Of a stretch of DNA of 30,992 nt, positions 16,891 through 30,992 are shown in pieces. Source of the DNA: Candidatus Aenigmatarchaeota archaeon (GTDB taxonomy: Archaea; Aenigmatarchaeota; Aenigmatarchaeia; PWEA01); NCBI GenBank assembly GCA_046539285.1, contig JBKHHH010000005.1:1-30992 (forward strand), read 5' to 3'. Both the position numbers and the translations under genes were made by a program. The first letter of the stretch is position 1; every line of letters starts with the position of its first letter. The notes below the pieces were generated by a model, which saw only the letters and a list, made by a program, of their open reading frames with translations, made no database searches and was not told the origin of the DNA.

Positions 16891-17292
16891 ATGAAGCAGA
16901 TAGATATCGAGGATCCTGCCGTGGAGAAGGTCAGACGTAAAGTAGAGGATGACCGAGGAGCCTCGGCTCTACTTCTCTTCGGGAGCCGGGCCCGGGGAAC
17001 GGAATCGGAAGGCAGCGACATAGATCTCTGCGTGGTTCTCAATCCGGACCTAAAGAAAGACGAAGTCTTCGATAAGACTTTGGAGTACCTATCTCTCGAA
17101 ACGGAGAAAATCGATATCTCTATCTTCCAGAACCTTCCTGTTGTCGTCAAGAAGAAGATCTTTGAGGAAGGGGACATAGTTTTTTCCAAGGACATCGACC
17201 TGGTCTACGATCTGGCCTTCCAGACCATCAAGGAGTATGACGACTTCCGCAAGTATTACGAGGACTACCTCGAGGGTGTTAAAAATGCCTGA
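16891..17292 (+). CDS. MNT-type nucleotidyltransferase antitoxin
   Basis: LLLFGSRARGTESEGSDIDLCVV is the GSxxxG...SDxD minimal nucleotidyltransferase motif. ATTAAAATATC box about 21-31 nt upstream of the ATG. Confidence 0.75.
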   Translation: MKQIDIEDPAVEKVRRKVEDDRGASALLLFGSRARGTESEGSDIDLCVVLNPDLKKDEVFDKTLEYLSLETEKIDISIFQNLPVVVKKKIFEEGDIVFSKDIDLVYDLAFQTIKEYDDFRKYYEDYLEGVKNA

Positions 17293-17695
17293 AAAGAGAG
17301 TACTTGAGAAGATCGATAAACTTGAAGGCTATTTAGACGAGATAGAAGGAGCCATGCCCCTTACCTTTGAGGAATATCGAAAGGGGTATAGAAAAAGAGC
17401 TCTGGAAAGACTCCTTCAGGTGTCGATTGAAACTATTATAGATGTCTGCAACCTCATTCTAAAGGAAGAGAAGTTCGGTGTTCCCAGCGATGAAGAAGAT
17501 GTATTCTCAAAGCTATCTCAAGAGGAGGTTCTGAACGAGTCTCTGGCCGATGCATTGAGGAAGATGAGAGGTTTCAGAAACATCCTAGTTCATAGATACG
17601 GCGAGGTCGATGACAGAAAGGTTTTTAAGTTTTTAGAAAACGAGTTGGATGATTTCTCACTCTTTATATCAAAAATAAAATCCTATCTGAACTAG
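17285..17695 (+). CDS. HepT (DUF86, HEPN-domain) RNase toxin
   Basis: FRNILVHRYGEVD contains the Rx4HxY HEPN motif. ATG 17285 overlaps the MNT gene by 8 nt (the ORF-track start at 17237 lies inside the MNT gene). Confidence 0.75.
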   Translation: MPEKRVLEKIDKLEGYLDEIEGAMPLTFEEYRKGYRKRALERLLQVSIETIIDVCNLILKEEKFGVPSDEEDVFSKLSQEEVLNESLADALRKMRGFRNILVHRYGEVDDRKVFKFLENELDDFSLFISKIKSYLN

Positions 17696-18110: not shown

Positions 18111-18120
18111 TATTTTTTGG
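18111..18120 (+). terminator. oligo-T tract downstream of pth2
   Basis: The sequence tattttttgg begins 11 nt after the pth2 stop. Archaeal termination typically uses T runs. Confidence 0.3.
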
Positions 18121-18140
18121 ATCTGACGTGCAAAATTTTA

Positions 18141-18155
18141 AGTATTGTAAATACT
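18141..18155. promoter_or_regulatory. perfect 6-3-6 palindrome AGTATT-gta-AATACT in the RelE-module promoter (candidate operator)
   Basis: Read directly from the sequence. It lies between an AAATTTTAAG TATA-like box (18132-18141) and the antitoxin start. Confidence 0.35.
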
Positions 18156-18167
18156 ATAACTATTTAC

Positions 18168-18359
18168 GTGACACAGAAAACCAAACGGGTTCCAGTTTCC
18201 AAGGAAATTTGGCAGGATTTGGGTAGAATGAAAGAGGCTGGTGAAACCTACGATGAACTTTTGAAGAAGATGATCAGAGATTATCAGAGGCATAAACTTG
18301 CTGAAAAGGCCAGAGAGGCCAGAAAAGGAAAGGGCAAATGGATCAAGCTAGATGATTAG
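18168..18359 (+). CDS. putative antitoxin of the RelE-like module
   Basis: A small basic/helical protein (…TQKTKRVPVSKEIWQDLGRMKEAGETYDELLKKMIRDYQ…) ending 3 nt before the toxin ATG. The start is uncertain: in-frame GTG at 18168, or ATG at 18117, which would run through the promoter-like A/T region. Confidence 0.45.
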   Translation: MTQKTKRVPVSKEIWQDLGRMKEAGETYDELLKKMIRDYQRHKLAEKAREARKGKGKWIKLDD

Positions 18360-18362
18360 AAG

Positions 18363-18653
18363 ATGCCGGGTTATGAAGTCTATTTATCTGAAGATGCAGA
18401 TGATTTTTTAAGTTCTGTGGATGCTAAAAGTCAGAGGATTTGCAAAAATAATCTCAAAAAGTTAAAGTCAGATCCTTATCCTGGTCGAGGTAGTGGAGAT
18501 AAAGAGAAAATAATTGTTGAGGGAGAAGAGGTCTATAGGTTGCATATAGGAAGAAGTTATACAGCTTTTTACGTAATAGTTGAAAAGGATAATGTTGTCC
18601 GAGTTTTGGAAATCATGACTATAGATGAGGCACACAAAAAATATGGTTATTGA
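18363..18653 (+). CDS. RelE/ParE-superfamily toxin
   Basis: 96 aa. …KKLKSDPYPG…YRLHIGRSYTAFYVIVEKDNVVRVLEIMTIDEAHKKY follows the RelE/StbE pattern (YRxRIGdYRaiY…v.v..i.hR…Y). Confidence 0.6.
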   Translation: MPGYEVYLSEDADDFLSSVDAKSQRICKNNLKKLKSDPYPGRGSGDKEKIIVEGEEVYRLHIGRSYTAFYVIVEKDNVVRVLEIMTIDEAHKKYGY

Positions 18654-20943: not shown

Positions 20944-23505
20944 CTAAACGTCCAAGACTCCTTCGTCAGGCAGTGTGTCGATGTCCTGAAGTGCAGCTGC
21001 AGCATCTCGAGTGTCTTCCTTCTCCAGACCAGCAACAATCAGTGCCGTCTGACCGTCTTTGAACGCGTCTTCGACCAGCTGGATCTCGGGTGTGTCCTCG
21101 TTCCACTGTTCGAGACATTCTGTTGCGTTCGTGTCGACACCTTCCATTTCGCTGCCCTTCTCGTCGATCAGTGTCTGGACATGTGTGTTGACACATGGTC
21201 CACCGACCAAAATCAGGTCCTGATCGATGTCAGAAGGCTCTGCTACTTCAGTGTCCAACTTGGCAACGGACGATGTGATCGGAGCGGCCTCGTTGTACGT
21301 TACCTCTCCACCGGCAGTTGCGGAAAGCTCTCCGTCAGCACCGGTCACAGCCATCCCGACATTGGACTCGTGGCTCGGGAAGCTGATGTCGATTTCTCCT
21401 TCGTCGCTGGAACTGTCAACTTCGAAGTAGGTTCCGTAGTAGCTGTAAGAAGCTTCTACGTCATCGTCCTCTTCGAAAGTTGCGAAATCGAAACCAGCAT
21501 CACTAACACCTGCTACATCGCCTGTGACATCTACTTCGTCGTCGCCGTCAGCTTCAGGTGTAACGGTGAACGCGTGCTCTGTGTCTTCGTTGTCTTCAGG
21601 CTGGATAACCAGAGCTGAAGGTCCCTCGACGTCTGCCTCGACTGTGACATCTTCATCCCAGTTGTCATCTGTGTCTACGCTTGCTGTGATGTCGAAGATG
21701 TCTTCGTCGTACTCGCCGTCGATATCTCCGTTTTCGTCGATCGTGACAACTGTGTCACCTGAAGACTTCGTGCTCGGTAGTCTGACCTTGATTTCTTCTG
21801 CGTCATCTCCGTCGTTAGCCAGAACGACTTCTTCCTCGTTGAGGAACGAAACTGCTGAGTCCGTCTCCGTGTAGACGTTCGGGAAGACGACTTCTTCGTC
21901 AGAACCTTCTCTCTCTACTGTAAGACTGTCGTCGTCCTCTACTGTGACGATGTAGGTTTCTCTGTTCAACCTGAATTCAGCTTCCTGAGAACCAGATGAA
22001 TCTGAGACAAATTCGAAGTCATCTTCCTCTAGGTCGATTGTCTCACCTGTGAACTTGTTCTCTAACTCGACAACTGAGTTAGCTTCGTCATCACTGTCAT
22101 CATATTCAACGTCTGTGACTTCGTACATGTTGGCTCTTTCATCGTAGTTCAGGACGATGAAGTCATCCATTTCTACTGTTTCGCCTTCGTGGGTAGCGAT
22201 CCTACCGTCAGAGTCTCCTAGTCTATCTATGGATCCCTCGTCGTCAGGGCTGTACGCGAACTCGATTTCAGCTTCGTCGCCTGAGTCGTCTGTCATTCTG
22301 AGTATTGCTTCTTCTGTTCCACCGTCGATCTCGACGGTCTCTGCGGCGTCTTCGGCTGCATCGGGACTTATTCCACCGTAGTGGAACTCGATTCCGAAGA
22401 GCGGGTCTTCGTAACTCTCGCCTGCTTCTATGAATCTGCTGTCTCTGTCCAGTGCTCCGAATTCGATTGTGATTCCTTCCAAATTTTCTACATCGTCTAA
22501 ATTTTCTACATCGTCTTGTTCGAACTCAACGTTTGTTGCATCTACGTCTTCTCCGTCTATCTCTACTGGGTCACCGTCTGAGAGAACCATCTCTTCGGAT
22601 CCGATTCCGAACTGGACGATACCTTCTCCGTCACCGAACGGATAAACGTTGCTTACTCTGACTTCCTGATCGCCTACGTCGAAGGTTTCTCCTTCTTTGA
22701 GCTTCTTCGTCTCGCCGTCTACCGTGAAGGTTGCGGAGTCTTCTTCTTCCGGAACGAACCTCACATCGATCTCTGCTTCCTCGCCTCCTGCTTCTATCGT
22801 CTTTGCTTCGCCTCTCTCGATCTCTACCGTTTCCGAGTCTCCGAAGAGTACCAGTTCACCTGCGTCTGCGTCAGTGTCCGGTGAGACTTCGTAGGTTCTT
22901 CCGAACATTTCAACTTCTTCGTTTTCCATGTCTTCGTGTGCGAAGTCGACATCTTCATCGAAGAATGATTCGATGCTGAAGAGTTCTCCATCATCTACAT
23001 CGTCTGGTAGTCCGATGTAAAGTCCGACCTCGTCCTGGTTTCTCTTCTCTGCGTCGAATCTTTGGCTTCTACCAGCGATCGAGATCTCGTTCTCGACCTC
23101 TACTTCTTCGTCTTCGTATTCATCTGTGAACGTCTGGACATCAAGCATGTGAAGGTCTCCCTCTACAAGTGCGTCGATTCCATCGTTCGTTTCACTGTTC
23201 AGGTAAAGGTTGCTGTTTGGTTTGTTCAGTGTAATTCCTTCTTCGGATGTCCACTGTGCAGCACCTTCGGTTTCTGCTGTTTTTTCGACTGTTGGTTGAC
23301 CACCCAGTGTGACTGCGACGTCAATCGCAGAAGCTACGTCCGCTACGTCGGCGTTTGAACCGACTACCATGGAGAAATTCGAGTCTCCATCCTGAACGAA
23401 CGGTGCTGGATAGTCCGCTAAGGAAGCAGCTGCGGCAGGAAATGCCAGAGTTGCTCCCGTCATTAGAGCTCCTAATGCAGAAGCTGCTAATTTTCTAAGT
23501 TGCAT
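20944..23505 (-). CDS. highly acidic S-layer-type surface (glyco)protein
   Basis: From ATG 23505 (GGTGAT 7 nt upstream) there is a signal peptide MQLRKLAASALGALMTGATLAFPAAAAS. The N-terminal LADYPAPFVQDGDSNFSMVVGSNADVADVASAIDVA and the C-terminal DLILVGGPCVNTHVQTLI ... TALIVAGLEKEDTRDAAAAL resemble the S-layer N/C domains of Methanococcales/Thermococcales. The body is very D/E/T-rich. No C-terminal TM or PGF-type anchor. Confidence 0.7.
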   Translation of the reverse strand: MQLRKLAASALGALMTGATLAFPAAAASLADYPAPFVQDGDSNFSMVVGSNADVADVASAIDVAVTLGGQPTVEKTAETEGAAQWTSEEGITLNKPNSNLYLNSETNDGIDALVEGDLHMLDVQTFTDEYEDEEVEVENEISIAGRSQRFDAEKRNQDEVGLYIGLPDDVDDGELFSIESFFDEDVDFAHEDMENEEVEMFGRTYEVSPDTDADAGELVLFGDSETVEIERGEAKTIEAGGEEAEIDVRFVPEEEDSATFTVDGETKKLKEGETFDVGDQEVRVSNVYPFGDGEGIVQFGIGSEEMVLSDGDPVEIDGEDVDATNVEFEQDDVENLDDVENLEGITIEFGALDRDSRFIEAGESYEDPLFGIEFHYGGISPDAAEDAAETVEIDGGTEEAILRMTDDSGDEAEIEFAYSPDDEGSIDRLGDSDGRIATHEGETVEMDDFIVLNYDERANMYEVTDVEYDDSDDEANSVVELENKFTGETIDLEEDDFEFVSDSSGSQEAEFRLNRETYIVTVEDDDSLTVEREGSDEEVVFPNVYTETDSAVSFLNEEEVVLANDGDDAEEIKVRLPSTKSSGDTVVTIDENGDIDGEYDEDIFDITASVDTDDNWDEDVTVEADVEGPSALVIQPEDNEDTEHAFTVTPEADGDDEVDVTGDVAGVSDAGFDFATFEEDDDVEASYSYYGTYFEVDSSSDEGEIDISFPSHESNVGMAVTGADGELSATAGGEVTYNEAAPITSSVAKLDTEVAEPSDIDQDLILVGGPCVNTHVQTLIDEKGSEMEGVDTNATECLEQWNEDTPEIQLVEDAFKDGQTALIVAGLEKEDTRDAAAALQDIDTLPDEGVLDV
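22481..22516. repeat. perfect 18-nt tandem duplication inside the S-layer gene
   Basis: aaattttctacatcgtct occurs twice in tandem (22481-22498 and 22499-22516). It encodes DDVENL-DDVENL. Confidence 0.9.
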
Positions 23506-23630: not shown

Positions 23631-23638
23631 TATATAAA
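23631..23638 (-). promoter_or_regulatory. TATA box (TTTATATA) upstream of the S-layer gene
   Basis: Consensus-like TTTATATA on the minus strand, about 125 nt upstream of ATG 23505, implying a leader of roughly 100 nt. A second TATATAAAT lies at 23695-23703. Confidence 0.4.
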
Positions 23639-23782
23639 AGTGACTTGAAACCGTTTCACGCCGCATCCCGGTTAGGACATCAAACCCTTTGTAGTATATA
23701 AATAGTGATTATAGAACATCTAATTGTTACATCGGACTATTGAAACCTTTAATAGGAAAATAAAGCATTTTAAGACAATTTT

Positions 23783-24451
23783 CTATTCTCCGGCCTTCTC
23801 GAGCTCCTCAGCGACGATTTCTCTTACTTTCTCGTGGTTCTGGAATCCATGGTGAACCTGGTCGTTGACAACCAATGTTGGAGTCTCGGTCACGTTGTAC
23901 CTCTCCTTGAGGATGGTTATCATGTTTTCCTCTATTTCCATGTCCAGCGGGAAGACCCAGACCTTCTTGTCGTAGGTCTTTCTGATCTGAGTCAGAATGA
24001 AGCCCTGCGTCGGACAGGAGCCGCATCCTTCCTCGTGAAAGTAGAGGACCCAGATGTCGTCGTTGTCACAGAGCTCGTTCGACTTCCTGAGAAGCATCCA
24101 GTAGCGGAGGTTGGCTATCGTGTAGTCCCTCTTCAGGTCCAGGTATTCTTCTTTGCTGAAGTCACTGCTCTTTTGATAGTCACTGAGCTGATCAAGGAGA
24201 CCTTTCAGTCGCACCAGACTTTTCTTTATCGTCTGATCCGATATGCGGCAGAAGTCTTCCGGTGATACCTCGGAGAGGTAGAAGTACTGTGTCTGGAGAT
24301 CTTTGTAGTCTATCCTTTCCTCCTCGAGACTGTTCTGCAGATAGTTCAACCGCATCGTGTCCATGAATTCCCCGGCGGCCAGACCTGAGAAGATTATGGC
24401 CATGGTCAAAGCCCCGGCGAAGAGGTAGCGTCTTTTCTTGATCTCTCGCAT
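23783..24451 (-). CDS. membrane-anchored extracytoplasmic thioredoxin-fold protein with CGSC active site (paralogue 1)
   Basis: From ATG 24451 (TTTTATAT box 28-35 nt upstream; the ORF-track start at 24496 is a TTG). Basic N-terminus MREIKKRR plus one TM helix, then a helical region, then VLYFHEEGCGSCPTQ ... TETPTLVV (CxxC plus a cis-Pro-type TP). Confidence 0.6.
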   Translation of the reverse strand: MREIKKRRYLFAGALTMAIIFSGLAAGEFMDTMRLNYLQNSLEEERIDYKDLQTQYFYLSEVSPEDFCRISDQTIKKSLVRLKGLLDQLSDYQKSSDFSKEEYLDLKRDYTIANLRYWMLLRKSNELCDNDDIWVLYFHEEGCGSCPTQGFILTQIRKTYDKKVWVFPLDMEIEENMITILKERYNVTETPTLVVNDQVHHGFQNHEKVREIVAEELEKAGE

Positions 24452-24536
24452 CTTATCTAAAACTAACTTCTGGTCCAAATATAAAACATTTTCCAATCCG
24501 ACAAAGCTTTTATTGCCTCGTCGTAATAGTTTAGGT

Positions 24537-25607
24537 ATGGACTATTCCGTTGTCGTCCCTACCTACAACGAACGGGAGAACGTGGAGGAGCTAGTCGAGA
24601 GAATCTCAAGTTCTCTTGAGAACATGGACTACGAGATAATCATCGTCGACGACGACTCGCCCGATAAGACCTGGGAACTGGCCGGAAAACTGGCCGAAAG
24701 CAGAAATGACTTGCGGGTCATCCGCCGGAGGAAGGAAAAGGGACTGGCCACGGCCGTGGTCCGCGGCTTTGAGGAAGCGAAAGGTGAGAGACTGGCCGTG
24801 ATAGACTCCGACCTCCAGCATCCCCCGGAGAAGCTCAGGGAACTTTACGAGGCACTGGACGACAACGACATTGCTATCGGATCCAGGAAAGTCGAAGGTG
24901 GTGGCATCGAGGACTGGCCCTTCTACCGCAAGATAATTTCAAAGGGTGCCGAGCTGATAGGCAAGGTCTTCGTCAAGGAGGTTCGCGAAGTCAAGGACCC
25001 GCTGTCCGGGTTTTTTGCCCTGCGAAGAGAAGTCATTGAAGACGTTGAGCTGGATCCCGAAGGCTACAAAATATTAATCGAGATACTGGTTCGAGGTGAG
25101 TACAATGATGTGGAAGAAATGCCTTTCACCTTTGTGGATCGCGAGAAGGGGGAAAGCTCACTTGGACTGAAGCAGAACTGGAACTACCTGAAGCATATCT
25201 TCCGCCTTTCCAAGGACACAGGAGAGATGTTTCGTTTCTTCAAGTTCTGTCTTGTCGGTCTCAGCGGCGTCTTCGTCAACATGGGCGTTCTCTACGTCTT
25301 GACGGAACTGGCCGGACTTTTCTACCTCATTTCCGGTTTCTTCGCCGTCGAATCGGCGATAGTTTCCAACTTCGTTCTCAACGAACTGTGGACGTTTAAC
25401 GATCGAACCGGGAAGACGATTCTTCACCGTTTCGGCAAGTTCAACCTGATCTCCTTCGGAGGACTGGCCATCAACATGGCCTTTCTCTACGGCCTGACTG
25501 AATTTGTCGGACTGTATTACCTCCTCTCCAACCTGATCGGTATCGCCGCGGCCACAGCCTGGAACTTCTCCCTCAACACTCTCTTTACCTGGCACGAGGA
25601 CAAGTGA
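24537..25607 (+). CDS. dolichyl-phosphate hexose synthase (DPM1/AglD-like GT2) fused to a GtrA-like 4-TM domain
   Basis: VVVPTYNERENV, IIIVDDDSPDKT and AVIDSDLQHPP are the DPM1-type GT2 motifs. The C-terminal 130 aa carry four helices of the GtrA pattern. CTTTTATTG box 22-30 nt upstream of ATG 24537 (the ORF-track start at 24438 overlaps the divergent gene). Confidence 0.8.
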   Translation: MDYSVVVPTYNERENVEELVERISSSLENMDYEIIIVDDDSPDKTWELAGKLAESRNDLRVIRRRKEKGLATAVVRGFEEAKGERLAVIDSDLQHPPEKLRELYEALDDNDIAIGSRKVEGGGIEDWPFYRKIISKGAELIGKVFVKEVREVKDPLSGFFALRREVIEDVELDPEGYKILIEILVRGEYNDVEEMPFTFVDREKGESSLGLKQNWNYLKHIFRLSKDTGEMFRFFKFCLVGLSGVFVNMGVLYVLTELAGLFYLISGFFAVESAIVSNFVLNELWTFNDRTGKTILHRFGKFNLISFGGLAINMAFLYGLTEFVGLYYLLSNLIGIAAATAWNFSLNTLFTWHEDK

Positions 25608-25640: not shown

Positions 25641-27044
25641 ATGCTCGAAGAAAAACTGGAAGGACTGGAAGAGAAACACTATATTGCGATAATTCTTACC
25701 GTCTTCTTCGCGGCCGAGCTTATCGTTATCTATAAGATATGGAACCGACCGCCGATCTGGGACTCGGCCGTTTACATCGGCATGGGCAAAGCCCTTTTCT
25801 CTGCCGGCGAAGCCGGTCTCTGGGAGAACTTTCGCCCGCCCCTGATGCCTGTTCTTCTGGGTTTCGTGGACCTTGTTACTGATAACATATCTTCCGTCTC
25901 CAGACTGTTGAGCCTGACGATCTCGACGCTCGGAGCCGGTCTCATCTATGTATTAAGCAAACGAAGCTTCGACCGGGAGACGGCCTTTTACACGGCCTCG
26001 CTTGTCCTCGGAACCGGTATATTTTTCCTCTACACGAACCATGTCCTGACCGGGATACTGGCCTCCGTTCTTGTCTTTACATCCCTCTGCCTTGCCCGGG
26101 AAGAACGCTACTTTTTGTCCGGTCTTGTTGTTGCCTTGGCCTTTTTGACAAGATTCCCGGCCGCCCTGGTCGGTGCCGCGGTCTTTATCTATATTGTCTT
26201 TAAGTCCTATCAGGAAAAGAAGTGGAAAGAAGGCCTTGAAGACACGGTCTTTTTGATCCTGGGTTTCGCCCTGATCGCAGGACCTTACTTTCTGCTCAAC
26301 CAGCTCTTCTACGGTGACTTCCTGTTCCCGATAACCCGAGGCCTGGCCGTCCCACAGGCCGTTGCCTCGACCGACTTCATGTACGGTCTGTACTTTTATC
26401 TCGGGTCTCTGGCCTCCAACCCGTTCCTGGCCCTCTTCCCGCTGGGGATATACTTTACAATCAAGAAAAAGGAATCGAAATACGCACCGTTCCTGATCGC
26501 CCTCCTACTGTTCTACGGCTTTTTCACTGCTTTCTCGCACAAGGAGGTGCGCTTCGCTCTACTGTTCCTCCCCTTAATGTCACTCTTGACGGCCCGCGTT
26601 CTCAAGGAGATCAGGGAAAGAGAGATAGTTTCCAAACGGATGCTTCAGTTCGGCTTCAGCTTCGTCGTAGTTTTCCTGATTCTCTCGGCGACGATGGTCA
26701 ACCTCCAGACACGCGCCTACGACAATCCAGGCCAGGACGCCTTCTACTCGGAAGCATCGGAACTGGAGGGAACGGTCGCGGCCAACGATCCCCTGGTCAT
26801 GGTCTACGGTGACTTCCGCTACGCAGAGCTACCACCGGGCCGACTGGAGGAGTATTACGAGAGAAACATCAACGAAACTGACTACGTGGCGATCAACAGT
26901 TGTAACTGGTACTGTCCGAGAGAGATGAGCGAGGAGGAGTGTGAGGAAGAGAGGAACGACCTGAGAAACTGGATCGAGACAGACCTCCAAGAACATTTTA
27001 ATCTGAGCCAGGATGACTGTCAATACCTCATCTATAAGAGGTGA
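25641..27044 (+). CDS. GT-C fold glycosyltransferase (GT39/GT83, ArnT/PMT/AglS-like), Dol-P-sugar dependent
   Basis: 467 aa with about 10 TM helices in the first 350 aa. The first external loop, RPPIWDSAVYIGMGKAL, has the Asp typical of GT-C enzymes. The C-terminal acidic soluble domain has 4 Cys (NSCNWYCP...EEECEEE...DDCQY). Confidence 0.65.
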   Translation: MLEEKLEGLEEKHYIAIILTVFFAAELIVIYKIWNRPPIWDSAVYIGMGKALFSAGEAGLWENFRPPLMPVLLGFVDLVTDNISSVSRLLSLTISTLGAGLIYVLSKRSFDRETAFYTASLVLGTGIFFLYTNHVLTGILASVLVFTSLCLAREERYFLSGLVVALAFLTRFPAALVGAAVFIYIVFKSYQEKKWKEGLEDTVFLILGFALIAGPYFLLNQLFYGDFLFPITRGLAVPQAVASTDFMYGLYFYLGSLASNPFLALFPLGIYFTIKKKESKYAPFLIALLLFYGFFTAFSHKEVRFALLFLPLMSLLTARVLKEIREREIVSKRMLQFGFSFVVVFLILSATMVNLQTRAYDNPGQDAFYSEASELEGTVAANDPLVMVYGDFRYAELPPGRLEEYYERNINETDYVAINSCNWYCPREMSEEECEEERNDLRNWIETDLQEHFNLSQDDCQYLIYKR

Positions 27045-27691
27045 AAACCATCGAGAAATACAAGTATTTCGGTCTCGCGATCTTTGCGATAGTTATCTTT
27101 GTTCTCGGTATGGTCTTCGCTAACTCTCTCTGGAAAAACGAGATTATCGACACCGAGACCGACCTGGATCGCGACACCACCGAGCTGAGATCGATGGAGC
27201 TTCAGCTGATCTACCTGCAGTCCGAAAGTGTCAAGTCCTGTGACCTGCTCGAACTCGGTCTCCAGGATACGATGAGCGACTACAACGAGAACCTGAAGAA
27301 AGTCCAGAACTATAACTCCACTTTCAACCGTGAGCGCTACCGGTTACTGAAGAAAAGGTACGTCCTCTCCGGTATAATGTACTGGATATTTGCCGAGGAT
27401 CTCCGGGAGAAGTGCGATTTCAACGCCACGACAGCCCTCTTCTTTACCGAAAGCCTGGACGAGGAGTCCAGAAACGAATGCGAGAGCAAGGTCACTGATA
27501 ATCTGGACTCCCTGAAGGAGGACTATGGAGATGGCCTGCTGGTGTTCACAGTTCCCATGGAGATGGATCTCGGCATGGCCGATGTGCTCGAGAAGCAGTA
27601 CGAGGTGGAAGACGTTCCTCTCCTGGTTTTCAATGGAAACAATACTATTTCCGGCTGTCCGGACCGGGAAGAGATAGAAGCCGAACTCTAG
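27041..27691 (+). CDS. membrane-anchored thioredoxin-fold paralogue lacking the CxxC site (paralogue 2)
   Basis: The GTG start overlaps the GT-C stop (GTGA). It has the same length class and landmarks as 23783-24451: an N-terminal TM, YL…C, Y..LKKRY…MYW…EKCD, LFF.E, VF…ME…L….Y.V…P.LV.N, and an EL C-terminus. However, CGSC is replaced by DEES. Confidence 0.55.
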   Translation: MKTIEKYKYFGLAIFAIVIFVLGMVFANSLWKNEIIDTETDLDRDTTELRSMELQLIYLQSESVKSCDLLELGLQDTMSDYNENLKKVQNYNSTFNRERYRLLKKRYVLSGIMYWIFAEDLREKCDFNATTALFFTESLDEESRNECESKVTDNLDSLKEDYGDGLLVFTVPMEMDLGMADVLEKQYEVEDVPLLVFNGNNTISGCPDREEIEAEL

Positions 27692-28921
27692 CTACCATTT
27701 CTTTTCTTTGCCTGTGATCACTTCCCAGATTACCACTATGCAGACCGCTCCGATTAGTAAAAAATAGAAAAACATGTAGGGGACCAGAGCCATCTTTTTC
27801 TTCAGGCCTATGCTTTCGTTTGTGATCTTATGGGATATCCAGATCAGGACCATGGTCACCAGTCCGAGACATCCGAGCACCATGTAGTTCTTGGCGTTAA
27901 GGTTGAGCAGTATTTCCAGAATATTGAGATCAAAGCTCATGGTGCTTATCAGCGGACCAACCTGAAAACCGACGGCGCTCAAATTGAGAATAAGCTCGTA
28001 GATCGGAGTCAGGGTGAACTTTCCGATCATGACCAGGACTATCGCGGCCAGGAAGACCTGGATTACACTGACCGGCATCTGAAACATTCCGAAGTCGCCG
28101 TACTCCCGGTGGAATACCATTTCCTTGTAGCGAATGGCGTTGAACAGCGAGCCCTTGTACCATCTATTCCTCTGGTGGTAGAACTCCTTCAGAGTCGAGG
28201 GCGCATTGGTGTAGACGTCTCCTTCGTAGCAGTTTCTTATCTTCTCGTGATGCTTCTGGAATCGATGGGCTATCTCCTTGTCCTCGACCAGACTATCGGT
28301 GTCGAAACCGCCCACTTCCTCCAGTACGCTTCTCCTGTAGAGAGAGAAGGGTCCGGGTGTAACAAAGATACAGTTTATCTTTTCCATCATCTCCTTGAGA
28401 AAGATGCCCAGGATGTACTCGAACCACTGCATCAGCTGAAGCAGGTTGTCGGGCTTGTTGACTTTCATAGCCGGGGTCACGGCGGCCGTATCGTCGTCCA
28501 TCAGTCTCAACATCTTCTTCAGCGTCCCGGGTGCCGGGAAAGAGTCGGCGTCCAGGCAAGCGACGAACTCGCCGCTTGTTTCTTCGAGTCCACGGTTGAG
28601 AGCCGCACCCTTGCCCTGGTTTTCCTGGTTGATCAGCTTTATTTCGTCTTCGTATTTCTCGGCTATTTCTCTGGTTCTGTCCTGGGAGCCGTCGTTGACG
28701 ACCACGACCTCGAGCTTGTCTTCCGGGTAGTCCAGATCCAGGGCCCCTTCGATCGTGTCGGCGATCCCTTCTTCTTCGTTGTAGGCCGGGATCACGATCG
28801 AGACGGAGGGCCATTCCTCGTAGTCAATTTTTTCCTTGGTTGTGCCCCGGTTCTCAATGAACAGGATCAGAAAGAAGATCGTGATATAGAGAATAGGAAA
28901 GTAGAGCAAGAGGCGGATCAT
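27692..28921 (-). CDS. processive family-2 glycosyltransferase (NodC/PgaC/chitin- or cellulose-synthase-like)
   Basis: VSIVIPAYNEE, VVVVNDGSQD, ACLDADS, LVEDKEIA and the processivity motif HQRNRWYKG (QxxRW). TM helices at both ends. Confidence 0.8.
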   Translation of the reverse strand: MIRLLLYFPILYITIFFLILFIENRGTTKEKIDYEEWPSVSIVIPAYNEEEGIADTIEGALDLDYPEDKLEVVVVNDGSQDRTREIAEKYEDEIKLINQENQGKGAALNRGLEETSGEFVACLDADSFPAPGTLKKMLRLMDDDTAAVTPAMKVNKPDNLLQLMQWFEYILGIFLKEMMEKINCIFVTPGPFSLYRRSVLEEVGGFDTDSLVEDKEIAHRFQKHHEKIRNCYEGDVYTNAPSTLKEFYHQRNRWYKGSLFNAIRYKEMVFHREYGDFGMFQMPVSVIQVFLAAIVLVMIGKFTLTPIYELILNLSAVGFQVGPLISTMSFDLNILEILLNLNAKNYMVLGCLGLVTMVLIWISHKITNESIGLKKKMALVPYMFFYFLLIGAVCIVVIWEVITGKEKKW

Positions 28922-28923
28922 AG

Positions 28924-29820
28924 CTATTCCTCCCTGTACTTGATGCGGTTTGTCCGGCCGACCTTTTTCACTTCTATCAGACCCCTTTCCTTGAGGTCGC
29001 GGATCAGGCGCGAGACCTTGGCCTTGGAGAAATCGACCTGACTGACGATCCTTTTCTGTTTGATCTCGTTACCCGAAGCTTTGATAATTTCAAGTATCTT
29101 TCTTTCGTCCTCTTTCAGGGCCTGAGGCAGCTTGTCTTCGTCACCGCTGCTTGTCCTTAGAGCCAGGAAGAGTAGCAGTACGATCAGCAATGAACCCAGT
29201 CCTATCACGTAGAGGTTGCTGGTATCAGGTTCCTCTTCTCCCGCCTCTTCGAAGGAGACCGAGGGGCTAATACCTTCCCCTTCTGTAACGTCTTCCCTAG
29301 TCCAGTATACATATATTCGGCGACCGTCCGATCCCTTTTCACCGTTCCGTGGCGAGTAGCTGGAAAAGGGACTGGTTTCGTTTTCAGGTATCAGGACCAG
29401 GCCGCTGTCGAGGTTGCTGGTATAGACGAGGCGGTTGGTGTCCATAGGAACTTTGAGGTTGTCTTCGAAGGAGTAGTGTGCTTCCCTTCTCTTTGTCAGG
29501 CTGTTGGTTCTGAACTCAAATGTCAGTCTCCCCCTTTCGTTTTCCGGAAGATCGCAGTCGATCAGGGATCCGTAATCCCTTTCCTCTATGGTACAGCTTG
29601 AGTTTGCTACCGTCGATCTGAAGTTGAAATCTTGGCTTGGGAAGAGCAGTGGTATCTTTAATCTGTCGGGCATGGATGTGAATATCAGAGTGTCCTCGGC
29701 TTCCACCGTGGTCTTGTCTATAAATACCTCCCTCTTGTAGAAATCGAGCTCCGCGGCGGAAGCAAAGCTGGTCAAAAGGAGGCTACTGAGTAATGTTATC
29801 ACTAAGACCTTCTTGAACAT
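28924..29820 (-). CDS. bitopic protein: signal/anchor, about 215-aa extracytoplasmic domain, TM helix, cytoplasmic winged-helix DNA-binding domain
   Basis: From ATG 29820: MFKKVLVITLLSSLLLTSFASA, then a beta-rich domain, then LYVIGLGSLLIVLLLFLAL, then DERKILEIIKASGNEIKQKRIVSQVDFSKAKVSRLIRDLKERGLIEVKKVGRTNRIKY (MarR/TrmB-like wHTH). The stop lies 2 nt from the GT2 ATG. Confidence 0.6.
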   Translation of the reverse strand: MFKKVLVITLLSSLLLTSFASAAELDFYKREVFIDKTTVEAEDTLIFTSMPDRLKIPLLFPSQDFNFRSTVANSSCTIEERDYGSLIDCDLPENERGRLTFEFRTNSLTKRREAHYSFEDNLKVPMDTNRLVYTSNLDSGLVLIPENETSPFSSYSPRNGEKGSDGRRIYVYWTREDVTEGEGISPSVSFEEAGEEEPDTSNLYVIGLGSLLIVLLLFLALRTSSGDEDKLPQALKEDERKILEIIKASGNEIKQKRIVSQVDFSKAKVSRLIRDLKERGLIEVKKVGRTNRIKYREE

Positions 29821-29851
29821 GATTAGTCTTACTCCGGGAGAGATAAATATT

Positions 29852-30307
29852 TTAATCCGGTGACGTAACAATTCCGCCGGCTCCCTGGGATGCGTACTGA
29901 TGGACCAGGGCTGCGACTGTATTGGAGATGTCCTGTAGCTCGCCGACACCGAGCTTGACGTTCTTCGGTTCGAGAACTTCGACGGAAGAAGGACCGTACA
30001 AGAAGGAAAACTTGACTAGGTTCTTGACCGAATTGATCATGAACTCGATCTCTGCGATCTGAGAATAGGCCTCGGGGACTCTGTTCGATATGTTCTCGAC
30101 CTTTTCCGGTTCATCCATCTCCTCTTTGTAAATTTCTATGCCGTCCTGGTCTTCTATCTTCTCGATATGTTTCTTCAGAGCCCTTTCCGTTACCTCCCGG
30201 TTCACAGCCATTACTTCGACGAAGGCCCGGGCCCGGATCCAGCCGTCTGATATCTTTTTCCTGATCTCTTCCTCGTCCATTTTATCACATAGAATCTCAT
30301 CGGCCAT
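29852..30307 (-). CDS. hypothetical 151-aa acidic protein
   Basis: ATG ORF overlapping the upstream radical SAM gene by 11 nt. No family recognised. Confidence 0.45.
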   Translation of the reverse strand: MADEILCDKMDEEEIRKKISDGWIRARAFVEVMAVNREVTERALKKHIEKIEDQDGIEIYKEEMDEPEKVENISNRVPEAYSQIAEIEFMINSVKNLVKFSFLYGPSSVEVLEPKNVKLGVGELQDISNTVAALVHQYASQGAGGIVTSPD

Positions 30308-30992
30308 CTTTAAATAAGTTGTCCGGAATCCAGTTCCGCCCTTTGATGTGGACTTCCCGACCGCAGTGCGGGCATTTAAGGTTCCGGTCCAGCTTGAACT
30401 CGGTTATTTCGAATCCTTTCCGCTTGATCACGACCCTTCCGCAGCCCGGGCAGAAGGTCGACTCCTTTTCGTGGCCGGGCACGTTTCCCGCGTAGGCGTA
30501 GAACATGCCTTTCTTGTAGGCGACGTCCACGGCTCTCTCCAGCGTGTCAACGGGCGTCGGTGGTGTCCGTTTCATCTCCAGGTGCGGCTGGAAACGGGAG
30601 AAATGGATCGGAGTCTCACGACCGAGGTTTTCCCTGACCCAGTCGACGGTCTTCTCGATGTGATAGTTACTGTCGTTCTCGCCAGGTATGATCAGGTTGG
30701 TCACCTCGATCCAGACGTCGTGTTTCTTCAGCTCTTTCATCGCTTCGTATATCGGTTCCGGATCCTTTATCTGGCAGTGTTCCCTGTAGAAGTTTACGTC
30801 GCCCTTGATGTCCACGTTTATCGCGTCCAGATGCGGGCCGATCTTTTTTACCGTTTCCTTGGTCATGTAGCCGTTGGAGACGAAGACGTTGTAGAGTTCG
30901 GTTTCGGCCTCGGTCATCGTGTCCAGGGCGTATTCCAGGAAGACGGTCGGTTCCGTGTATGTATAGGCAATGCCCTGGCACTGGTAGCCCCT
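30297..30992 (-). CDS. radical SAM enzyme of the AmmeMemoRadiSam / PflA-like (COG1180) type, N-terminus outside the window
   Basis: The frame is open to the window edge (RGYQCQGIAYTYTEPTVFLEYALDT…). The C-terminal part has …FSRFQPHLEM…YAYAGNVPGHEKESTFCPGCGRVVIKR…CPHCG…, typical of this family. The CxxxCxxC cluster would lie upstream of the window. Confidence 0.65.
   Translation of the reverse strand, partial: RGYQCQGIAYTYTEPTVFLEYALDTMTEAETELYNVFVSNGYMTKETVKKIGPHLDAINVDIKGDVNFYREHCQIKDPEPIYEAMKELKKHDVWIEVTNLIIPGENDSNYHIEKTVDWVRENLGRETPIHFSRFQPHLEMKRTPPTPVDTLERAVDVAYKKGMFYAYAGNVPGHEKESTFCPGCGRVVIKRKGFEITEFKLDRNLKCPHCGREVHIKGRNWIPDNLFKDGR

Follow-up and report, generated by a model that had tools for sequence, protein, structure and literature searches.

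The window analysed here, the complete 30,992-nucleotide stretch of contig JBKHHH010000005.1 from a Candidatus Aenigmatarchaeota archaeon (assembly GCA_046539285.1), carries on its minus strand a gene for a membrane-tethered protein with a cytoplasmic winged helix-turn-helix (wHTH) domain, henceforth also called the regulator, followed immediately by a gene for a family 2 glycosyltransferase (GT2). On balance, we consider it probable that the wHTH protein, acting as a dimer, binds a conserved palindrome and thereby controls the promoter of a nearby surface layer (S-layer) gene and, in most genomes, its own promoter. The S-layer gene is its predicted regulatory target, and the GT2 is best read as a lineage-specific operon passenger within a cluster of S-layer, polyprenyl-phosphate sugar, GT-C and thiol-disulfide genes. 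The features on which this argument is built are the following:

29820..28924, minus strand: coding sequence of the membrane-tethered wHTH protein, 298 amino acids (aa), based on its open reading frame (ORF), Pfam, an AlphaFold2 (AF2) model and 44 full-length homologs
28921..27692, minus strand: coding sequence of the GT2, 409 aa, cellulose-synthase/PgaC type, based on Pfam, NCBIfam, PDB sequence matches and motif conservation
20944..23505, minus strand: coding sequence of the S-layer protein, 853 aa, likely start ATG 23505 (MQLRKLAAS...), based on Pfam S_layer_C
23631..23639, minus strand: TATA box TTTTATATA in the S-layer promoter, separated by 6 nt from the candidate operator upstream, based on sequence and the same layout in relatives
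23646-23658, palindromic, no strand: candidate operator TGAAAC-G-GTTTCA (minus-strand reading), an exact match and the one copy in the window

A scan of one genome per species yielded 295 confirmed loci of the wHTH family. The best 80 of them formed the synteny set, in which the window proteins were compared by tblastn and neighbouring ORFs were clustered. Starting point for the candidate operator was a perfect palindrome, GAAACGTTTC, common to the regulator-upstream spacers of the six closest genomes, where it lies at the stop codon of the upstream gene. Twelve of the 80 loci contain this 10-mer, each a single time and nearly always immediately 5' of the regulator gene, and in many other loci TGAAAC-N-GTTTCA or several TGAAACA/TGTTTCA half-sites occupy the same place. 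The region from -160 to +30 relative to the wHTH starts shows a 7.5-fold enrichment of half-sites; the -100 to 0 bin contains 73 of them compared to about 6 per background bin, and 34 of the 80 loci possess at least two. The exact pattern GAAAC-N(0-1)-GTTTC occurs in 50 copies within 794,665 nt of related loci, with 1.37 copies expected from block shuffles (maximum 5 in 200 shuffles), which corresponds to an excess of about 36-fold. As many as 43 of these 50 copies are situated within 260 nt upstream of a gene start. The palindrome precedes 20 of 30 S-layer genes and 20 of 79 regulator genes; it is found upstream of 2 of 24 GT2 genes, both copies being shared with a divergent S-layer gene, of 2 of 36 MJ0538-family genes and of none of the 18 thioredoxin-like and 26 radical SAM genes. 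In 21 otherwise diverged S-layer promoters, that of the window included, it ends 6-9 nt ahead of the TATA box, and the arrangement recurs in independent metagenome contigs. We also considered an RNA hairpin. Since a centre of 0-1 nt is too short a loop to fold and the site is located upstream of the TATA box, the palindrome appears to be a protein-binding site at the DNA level rather than an RNA element.

Within the window, the coding-strand order at the S-layer promoter is TGAAACGGTTTCA, AGTCAC and TTTTATATA, the operator being 5.3 kb away from the regulator gene. The S-layer protein scores 81.2 bits against Pfam S_layer_C (cutoff 23.9). Its start was assigned to ATG 23505, which is preceded by GGTGA, because homologs begin at residues 36-37 of the long ORF. 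Read from this ATG, the protein has a signal peptide and no C-terminal transmembrane (TM) anchor; its 853 residues contain only two N-x-S/T sequons and, near the C-terminus, two cysteines.

The position of the palindrome differs between the promoters concerned. In the S-layer promoters of the window's clade a spacer-1 palindrome stands directly ahead of the TATA box, and in the regulator promoters of ten loci (L001-L006, L081-L084) the form is spacer-0, GAAACGTTTC; it lies some 25 nt ahead of the TATA box and overlaps the TGA with which the upstream gene ends. In five further loci (L007, L026, L053, L055, L073) the palindrome overlaps the wHTH start codon, ATGAAACGTTTCA encoding M-K-R-F, so that the candidate operator coincides with the opening codons of the regulator; such a copy, overlapping the start codon in several genomes, would be repressing. 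In the window itself the spacer-0 copy is lost, and the spacer ahead of the wHTH gene measures 31 nt compared to about 67 nt in clade relatives. The 80 loci fall into four synteny groups. All four have the palindrome upstream of the regulator gene, and the regulator is the sole gene which they have in common, a pattern typical of autoregulation.

A link between this DNA site and the protein is suggested by the recognition helix. Helix and wing of the wHTH domain, F/Y-S-K-A-K-V-S-R/K ... G-R-x-N, are nearly invariant in proteins which are otherwise 25-50% identical, and we see a match between this near-invariant recognition helix and the near-invariant DNA target. The one common variant of the helix, KVSK in place of KVSR, is present in 16 loci. 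At KVSR loci the outer base of the half-site is T in 70 of 82 cases, and at KVSK loci in 0 of 20, all of which have A or G (Fisher p 3e-13). Covariation of helix and operator is the pattern expected for direct read-out. The window conforms to it, as its protein has KVSR and its site T...A. The initial annotation had proposed that the protein could act on DNA while tethered to the membrane; the conserved palindrome together with the covariation lends indirect support to this idea.

The architecture of the wHTH protein is as follows:

29752..29820, minus strand: signal peptide, residues 1-23, MFKKVLVITLLSSLLLTSFASA followed by AE, with a KK n-region, a hydrophobic core and the cleavage motif ASA/AE, based on sequence and hydropathy
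29227..29751, minus strand: extracytoplasmic beta-sandwich domain, residues 24-198, based on family alignment, AF2 strands and Foldseek
29146..29226, minus strand: single TM helix, residues 199-225, based on hydropathy (199-226) and an AF2 helix (200-224)
28939..29115, minus strand: cytoplasmic wHTH, residues 236-294, based on Pfam DUF7343 (PF24034)
29843..29854, minus strand: TATA-like TAAAATATTTAT, its centre about 28 nt 5' of the wHTH ATG, in the 31-nt spacer, based on sequence

The gene extends from ATG 29820 to the stop codon TAG 28926-28924. An alternative GTG start, which would lengthen the ORF to 29949, is unlikely as it overlaps the upstream gene and is unused by homologs. The TATA-like element is possibly the gene's own promoter, which would give rise to a near-leaderless mRNA. 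The AF2 model of the protein was built on 36 family members and reaches a mean predicted local distance difference test (pLDDT) score of 90.8. Its first helix (residues 2-15) falls into the signal peptide region, which is conserved across the family. Fourteen beta-strands between residues 24 and 192 make up the outside domain, which carries the motif GSDGRRIxVxW in the family alignment. C76 and C89, both invariant in the family, oppose each other across a beta-hairpin (strands 75-81 and 84-90), the arrangement to be expected of a disulfide on the extracytoplasmic side. A low-confidence linker (residues 225-230) belongs to the tether of about 12 residues between TM helix and wHTH, the latter being modelled as three helices and two strands (residues 237-295). 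This domain matches DUF7343 with 61.2 bits (cutoff 27.6, E 8.4e-17) and scores just over the cutoffs of HTH_27 and HTH_24; all 36 aligned family members match DUF7343 as well. Its recognition helix reads FSKAKVSR and its wing GRTN; S265, K266, V269, S270, G288 and R289 are invariant in the family alignment. The 15 residues ahead of the TM helix are acidic and devoid of K/R while the segment behind it contains three, so the predicted topology, to which the model conforms, is N-out, C-in. Signal segment, single TM helix and outside/inside topology as initially annotated are thus borne out by hydropathy and AF2, and Pfam agrees with both on the one-component layout of outside domain, TM helix and cytoplasmic wHTH. 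The outside domain proved beta-rich as claimed, its size being about 175 aa instead of about 215 aa. As to the “MarR/TrmB-like” wHTH, the fold assignment stands by virtue of the DUF7343 match, and the family label does not reach the respective profile cutoffs given below.

A number of points weigh against the proposed control of the S-layer gene by the wHTH protein. The covariation of helix and operator is probably a single clade-level event and then no independent evidence. We infer DNA binding by the wHTH protein, and it could instead be some unrelated factor of the cytoplasm that recognises the palindrome and regulates both genes jointly. All S-layer genes in the palindrome counts were sampled through their proximity to a wHTH gene, and these counts cover the loci around wHTH genes rather than a whole-genome regulon. 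The window's own wHTH gene lacks a palindrome for autoregulation: GAAACGTTTC with up to one mismatch is not found anywhere in the window, and beyond the S-layer operator there is no further 13-mer palindrome in it with up to two mismatches. The wHTH domain remains under the curated Pfam cutoffs of MarR (21.4, cutoff 24.6), MarR_2 (23.0, cutoff 27) and TrmB (17.0, cutoff 25.6). Finally, a linker of about 12 residues would force the DNA very close to the membrane.

The family to which the protein belongs appears, from these searches, to be large, uncharacterised and almost restricted to the Aenigmatarchaeota, a DPANN phylum. A word-indexed search retrieved the 44 full-length homologs of about 300 aa; the three of them that are named by organism are proteins from Aenigmatarchaeota metagenome-assembled genomes called “helix-turn-helix transcriptional regulator”. 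Aenigmatarchaeota also account for nearly all phylum-named records among the best 80 of the 295 loci. A profile of outside domain and TM helix from which the wHTH had been removed collected 873 clusters at 50% identity, and almost all of the best 150 of these are about 300 aa long. DUF7343 follows the TM helix in ten of ten sampled clusters, the longest included, which argues for an obligate combination of outside domain and wHTH. Literature searches on DUF7343, COG2512 and ribophorin plus winged helix in archaea yielded no paper on this family. In some genomes a second DUF7343 protein is encoded within a few kb. One example (L081:14214-14900), with a weak CW_binding_2 match, follows an O-antigen-polymerase/GT4 cluster; in another locus a weaker second wHTH-family match (L029:2861-3568, tblastn E 9e-10) is located some 3 kb upstream of the principal match, and in L068, where the local gene order is as in L029, tblastn found no such second match.

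The envelope neighbourhood of the window spans 20.9-30.9 kb and comprises, besides the genes introduced above:

30297..30992, minus strand: radical SAM gene, cut by the window end and overlapping the MJ0538-family gene by 11 nt, based on Pfam Radical_SAM and synteny
29852..30307, minus strand: MJ0538-family (PF27325) cytoplasmic protein, 151 aa, based on precomputed Pfam assignment and synteny
27041..27691, plus strand: thioredoxin-like membrane-anchored paralog without CxxC, convergent with and abutting the GT2 gene, based on ORF, Pfam and hydropathy
25641..27044, plus strand: GT-C glycosyltransferase, Alg9-like/PMT_2, based on Pfam Glyco_transf_22 (E 3.6e-19) and PMT_2
24537..25607, plus strand: GT2 plus GtrA-TM protein of the polyprenyl-phosphate sugar synthase type, based on Pfam Glycos_transf_2 and GtrA_DPMS_TM
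23783..24496, minus strand: membrane-anchored thioredoxin-like protein with CGSC, based on weak Pfam Thioredoxin_3/Thioredoxin matches and one TM segment
20205-20816, minus strand: DUF116 protein (E 4.6e-29), directly downstream of the S-layer gene

Hydropathy assigns about nine TM segments to the GT-C glycosyltransferase, and the CGSC motif of the thioredoxin-like protein occupies residues 158-161. Radical SAM and MJ0538-family genes (homologs of about 345 aa and about 150 aa, respectively) directly upstream of the wHTH gene define the window's ortholog group, which comprises 42 of the 80 loci. The remaining 38 loci are paralogs, located among ribosomal-protein, RNase P, tRNA-synthetase, CDC48 and NurA genes. 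The MJ0538-family gene is the most conserved upstream neighbour of the ortholog group and takes position -1 in 31 of 77 loci; its product is modelled by AF2 as a ferredoxin-like beta-alpha-beta fold with a long C-terminal helix (pLDDT 87.6), a generic fold for which Foldseek returned no PDB match better than E 0.01. PF27325 is a recently defined family, a further example of which in relatives is L001:5479-5937. Of the 27 orthologous loci that extend 5 kb or more downstream, 24 possess an S-layer-like gene, 18 a GT2 ortholog within the locus and 17 a membrane thioredoxin-like gene. In many related loci the position of the DUF116 gene is taken by a gene for an unrelated 198-aa TM protein without Pfam match, followed by one for a DUF63 membrane protein. 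We would also like to mention two small adjacent ORF pairs (16891-17695 and 18117-18653, both plus strand) which, in the ORF listing, resemble toxin-antitoxin modules: one is opened by a nucleotidyltransferase-like motif (GSRARG...DIDL), and the second ORF of the other is RelE/ParE-like.

Most likely, the wHTH protein acts as a transcription factor tethered to the membrane by a single pass in type-I orientation. After cleavage of its signal peptide the disulfide-stabilised beta-sandwich would lie outside, and the single TM helix would hold the wHTH at the cytoplasmic face, where a putative dimer would bind TGAAAC-N(0-1)-GTTTCA. Its location upstream of the S-layer TATA box would be that of an archaeal activator site or of a site occluding the B recognition element (BRE); archaeal sites upstream of the TATA box are commonly activating. 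The copy of the palindrome at the regulator's own promoter or start codon in most relatives suggests autoregulation. Speculatively, the outside domain may report the state of the envelope, such as S-layer assembly, its glycan or a peptide, and S-layer transcription would then be adjusted at a locus that co-translational secretion already keeps at the membrane. In the lineage of the window, the placement of the GT2 gene in the regulator's operon would lead to both proteins being made together. The sign of the regulation of the S-layer gene, activation or repression, and the signal sensed are steps which we infer rather than observe. Given the missing membrane anchor of the S-layer protein and the conservation of a redox-active membrane thioredoxin nearby, contact of the outside domain with the S-layer protein or its maturation state is a reasonable guess. 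The S-layer protein is typically among the most abundant proteins of a cell. One might go further and regard the whole family as feedback sensors of S-layer biogenesis, in which a domain of the Ost1/ribophorin fold would keep watch on S-layer protein that is unassembled or lacks its glycans, or on the lattice's inner face, and would switch the S-layer promoter via the operator on a very short tether. In this specific form the proposal strikes us as rather doubtful.

Alternatively, the wHTH protein might be a structural or accessory membrane subunit (an Ost1/ribophorin-like partner of machinery for glycosylation or secretion, a GT2 partner or a stalk fixing the anchorless S-layer in the manner of SlaB) whose wHTH docks a protein, the ribosome or a nucleic acid, the palindrome being bound by another factor. 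This explanation draws on the predicted structure of the outside domain, which the initial annotation had recommended obtaining. The AF2 beta-sandwich has its nearest folds in ribophorin I/Ost1 and in the N-domains of M1 aminopeptidases. A Foldseek search of the PDB with the model is headed by human ribophorin I (E 1e-8 to 1e-7) and yeast Ost1 (4e-6), which share the N-out beta-sandwich and the one TM helix, followed by M1-aminopeptidase N-terminal beta domains and leukotriene A4 hydrolase (about 1e-5), all with template modelling scores of about 0.4. Since the aminopeptidase domains come up in the same search, the fold is to be considered generic. The missing TM anchor of the S-layer protein would likewise suit an accessory subunit, as would the neighbours, namely a CGSC membrane thioredoxin reminiscent of Ost3/6 and dolichol-type glycosylation enzymes; moreover, one conserved ligand other than DNA could also explain why the recognition helix is invariant. 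At the sequence level, however, a link to ribophorin I was not found. Ribophorin_I (PF04597) has zero matches at E<=10 among 36 full-length and 20 ectodomain sequences, and the latter match no Pfam family at all at this threshold. Hhalign against human RPN1 (its sequence having been checked against 6s7o_E) and against a vertebrate RPN1 profile gives probabilities of 2% and 0.5%, this profile being shallow because the homolog search returned vertebrate sequences only. Homology of the outside domain to ribophorin I/Ost1 is therefore unsupported by Pfam or hhalign, and we retain a resemblance at the level of the fold. Furthermore, the protein has one outside domain rather than two, the window contains neither a gene for the OST catalytic subunit AglB/STT3 nor any AglB-sized ORF, and the paralogs reside among housekeeping genes without GT2 or glycosylation genes nearby. 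Palindromes at the family's own promoters and the covariation of helix and operator point to DNA binding instead. An accessory subunit is hence unlikely in our judgement.

The coupling of the wHTH gene to the GT2 gene, on which the initial annotation had centred, is clearly present in the window. The TAG stop of the former and ATG 28921 of the latter are separated by the two nucleotides CT only, and a ribosome-binding site precedes the second gene:

28933-28929, minus strand: Shine-Dalgarno GGAGG, 7 nt before the GT2 ATG, within the 3' end of the wHTH gene, based on sequence

Gap and Shine-Dalgarno imply that both genes reside on one mRNA. The GT2 protein matches Pfam Glycos_transf_2 with E 1.7e-39. 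The motifs attributed to it as a NodC/PgaC/chitin-synthase-like enzyme are indeed present (D77, D124-A-D126, E213-D214, Q250-R-N-R-W254) and invariant or nearly so in 23 orthologs, the third one reading TED in most of them. Hydropathy places one hydrophobic segment N-terminal and three to four C-terminal of the catalytic domain. In the PDB it aligns by sequence with BcsA (over residues 8-275), hyaluronan synthase HAS1, chitin synthase and PcManGT (6yv7), a minimal mannosyltransferase from archaea that is cellulose-synthase-like. It therefore bears the hallmarks of a processive membrane synthase of the BcsA/PgaC type, sharing D, DxD, (T)ED, QRxRW and, as predicted from hydropathy, flanking TM helices with BcsA, PgaC/IcaA, NodC, the hyaluronan and chitin synthases and PcManGT. 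Its best NCBIfam match, PgaC/IcaA (TIGR03937), amounts to 163.3 bits and thus falls far short of the equivalog cutoff of 422.3 bits, which sets it apart from PgaC/IcaA proper. We would like to note that, where PMC8993221 cites Gandini et al. 2020 on PcManGT, such enzymes are said to be able to serve N-glycan assembly, so that a fold of this type need not make an exopolysaccharide.

A dedicated unit for sensing and making a polysaccharide, in which the wHTH protein controls the adjacent GT2 transcriptionally or by contact, for example to produce an attachment matrix, would account for the shared mRNA and the full set of processive-synthase motifs. The order of wHTH gene and GT2 gene is kept in five close relatives. 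In addition, a recurring link to surface glycans may be seen in the closest relative (53% identity, a metagenome contig), which has a Wzx-like flippase gene downstream of the regulator followed by O-antigen-polymerase-like and GT4 genes. Yet, a directly downstream and codirectional GT2 gene is found, apart from the window, in only 5 of 34 orthologous loci, and none of the 38 paralog loci contains a GT2. An S-layer gene takes position +1 after the regulator far more often (17 of 76 loci), as it does in the majority of the orthologous loci, and the candidate operator is absent from GT2 promoters save for the copies shared with S-layer genes. The GT2 gene is more constantly followed by a codirectional thioredoxin-like gene than preceded by the regulator; in another metagenome relative the thioredoxin-GT2 pair is even convergent to the regulator. 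These synteny counts rule out the GT2 as a conserved partner of the wHTH gene, and lack of conservation of the pairing is what the initial annotation had itself named as speaking against its proposal. Together with the placement of the operator, they indicate that the pair is no self-contained exopolysaccharide sense-and-synthesise unit and that the S-layer gene rather than the GT2 gene is the partner conserved for the regulator; on the same grounds a role of the wHTH protein as co-subunit of the synthase is disfavoured. We therefore regard the polysaccharide explanation as quite unlikely. The tight wHTH-GT2 coupling appears to be lineage-specific, the conserved trait being the neighbourhood of S-layer and envelope genes. 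Mere operon packing in a very small genome around a generic MarR/TrmB-like regulator with unrelated targets would befit the compactness of DPANN genomes and the paralogs adjoining ribosomal-protein, tRNA-synthetase and CDC48 genes, but is highly improbable given the S-layer gene in 24 of 27 orthologous loci and the strict placement of a motif with roughly 36-fold excess at S-layer and wHTH promoters.

Regulation of the S-layer gene by the wHTH protein, if correct, offers a testable triplet of protein family, 13-bp operator and target promoter, which is shared across an as yet uncultivated phylum of the DPANN, organisms that meet their hosts through their cell surface. Both the protein domain and the DNA site are of a size that permits direct testing in vitro, with no need to culture the organism. 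Reading the GT2 coupling as a lineage-specific operon arrangement guards against over-annotation of such gene pairs. In our literature searches, no publication on a regulator devoted to an archaeal S-layer gene came up. Should the doubtful notion of a feedback sensor hold true, the wHTH protein would be the first of this kind. It would then mirror ToxR-like receptors in type-I orientation, and it might be related, as a prokaryotic form whose tail binds nucleic acids, to the ribophorin fold.

Among known systems, the transmembrane transcription regulators (TTRs) form a recognised class, frequent among bacteria and archaea alike (Demey et al. 2023, PMC10269533). Pfam, hydropathy and AF2 assign to the wHTH protein the layout of this class, a predicted DNA-binding domain and at least one TM segment within one polypeptide. 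Like ToxR, CadC and TcpP it has a one-component layout with DNA-binding domain and sensor on either side of one TM helix; such regulators operate from the membrane and frequently target genes close by. In ToxR and CadC, which have type II topology, the OmpR-type wHTH is N-terminal and cytoplasmic and the sensor C-terminal and periplasmic. In contrast, the order is reversed in the wHTH protein, with a cleavable signal peptide, an N-terminal outside domain and, behind a linker of about 12 residues, a C-terminal DUF7343/MarR-like wHTH. ArnR and ArnR1 of Sulfolobus acidocaldarius are membrane-bound one-component regulators as well and bind inverted TCGAC-N5-GTCGA repeats within the promoter of flaB (PMC6396743). 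The archaeal origin, the attachment to the membrane and inverted repeats at the promoter of a gene for a cell-surface structure are features they share with the wHTH protein. Yet, ArnR is unrelated to it in sequence, targets archaellum and pili rather than an S-layer, and carries its N-terminal HTH, HAMP and sensing domains in the cytoplasm ahead of two C-terminal TM helices without any sizeable outside domain, whereas the wHTH protein has no HAMP, a single TM helix and a large outside domain. Recognition helix and wing are of the same kind as in archaeal wHTH proteins of the Lrs14/MarR/TrmB type; an Lrs14-like structure, 6cmv, is the best and only match of the family profile among PDB sequences, albeit a weak one (E 0.059), and these regulators are soluble, unlike the wHTH protein. 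Ribophorin I, a subunit of the oligosaccharyltransferase (OST) like its yeast counterpart Ost1, has a cytosolic domain that binds ribosomes and homologs reported only in eukaryotes and in Asgard and TACK archaea (PMC11417166). Ribophorin I/Ost1 resembles the wHTH protein in the succession of signal peptide, outside beta-sandwich, one TM helix and cytosolic nucleic-acid-binding module, but comprises two outside domains and a cytosolic four-helix bundle in place of one outside domain and a wHTH. Judged by sequence and layout, the wHTH protein thus appears to belong to a known class, the membrane-bound one-component regulators, and within it to a family outside those of ToxR/CadC and ArnR.

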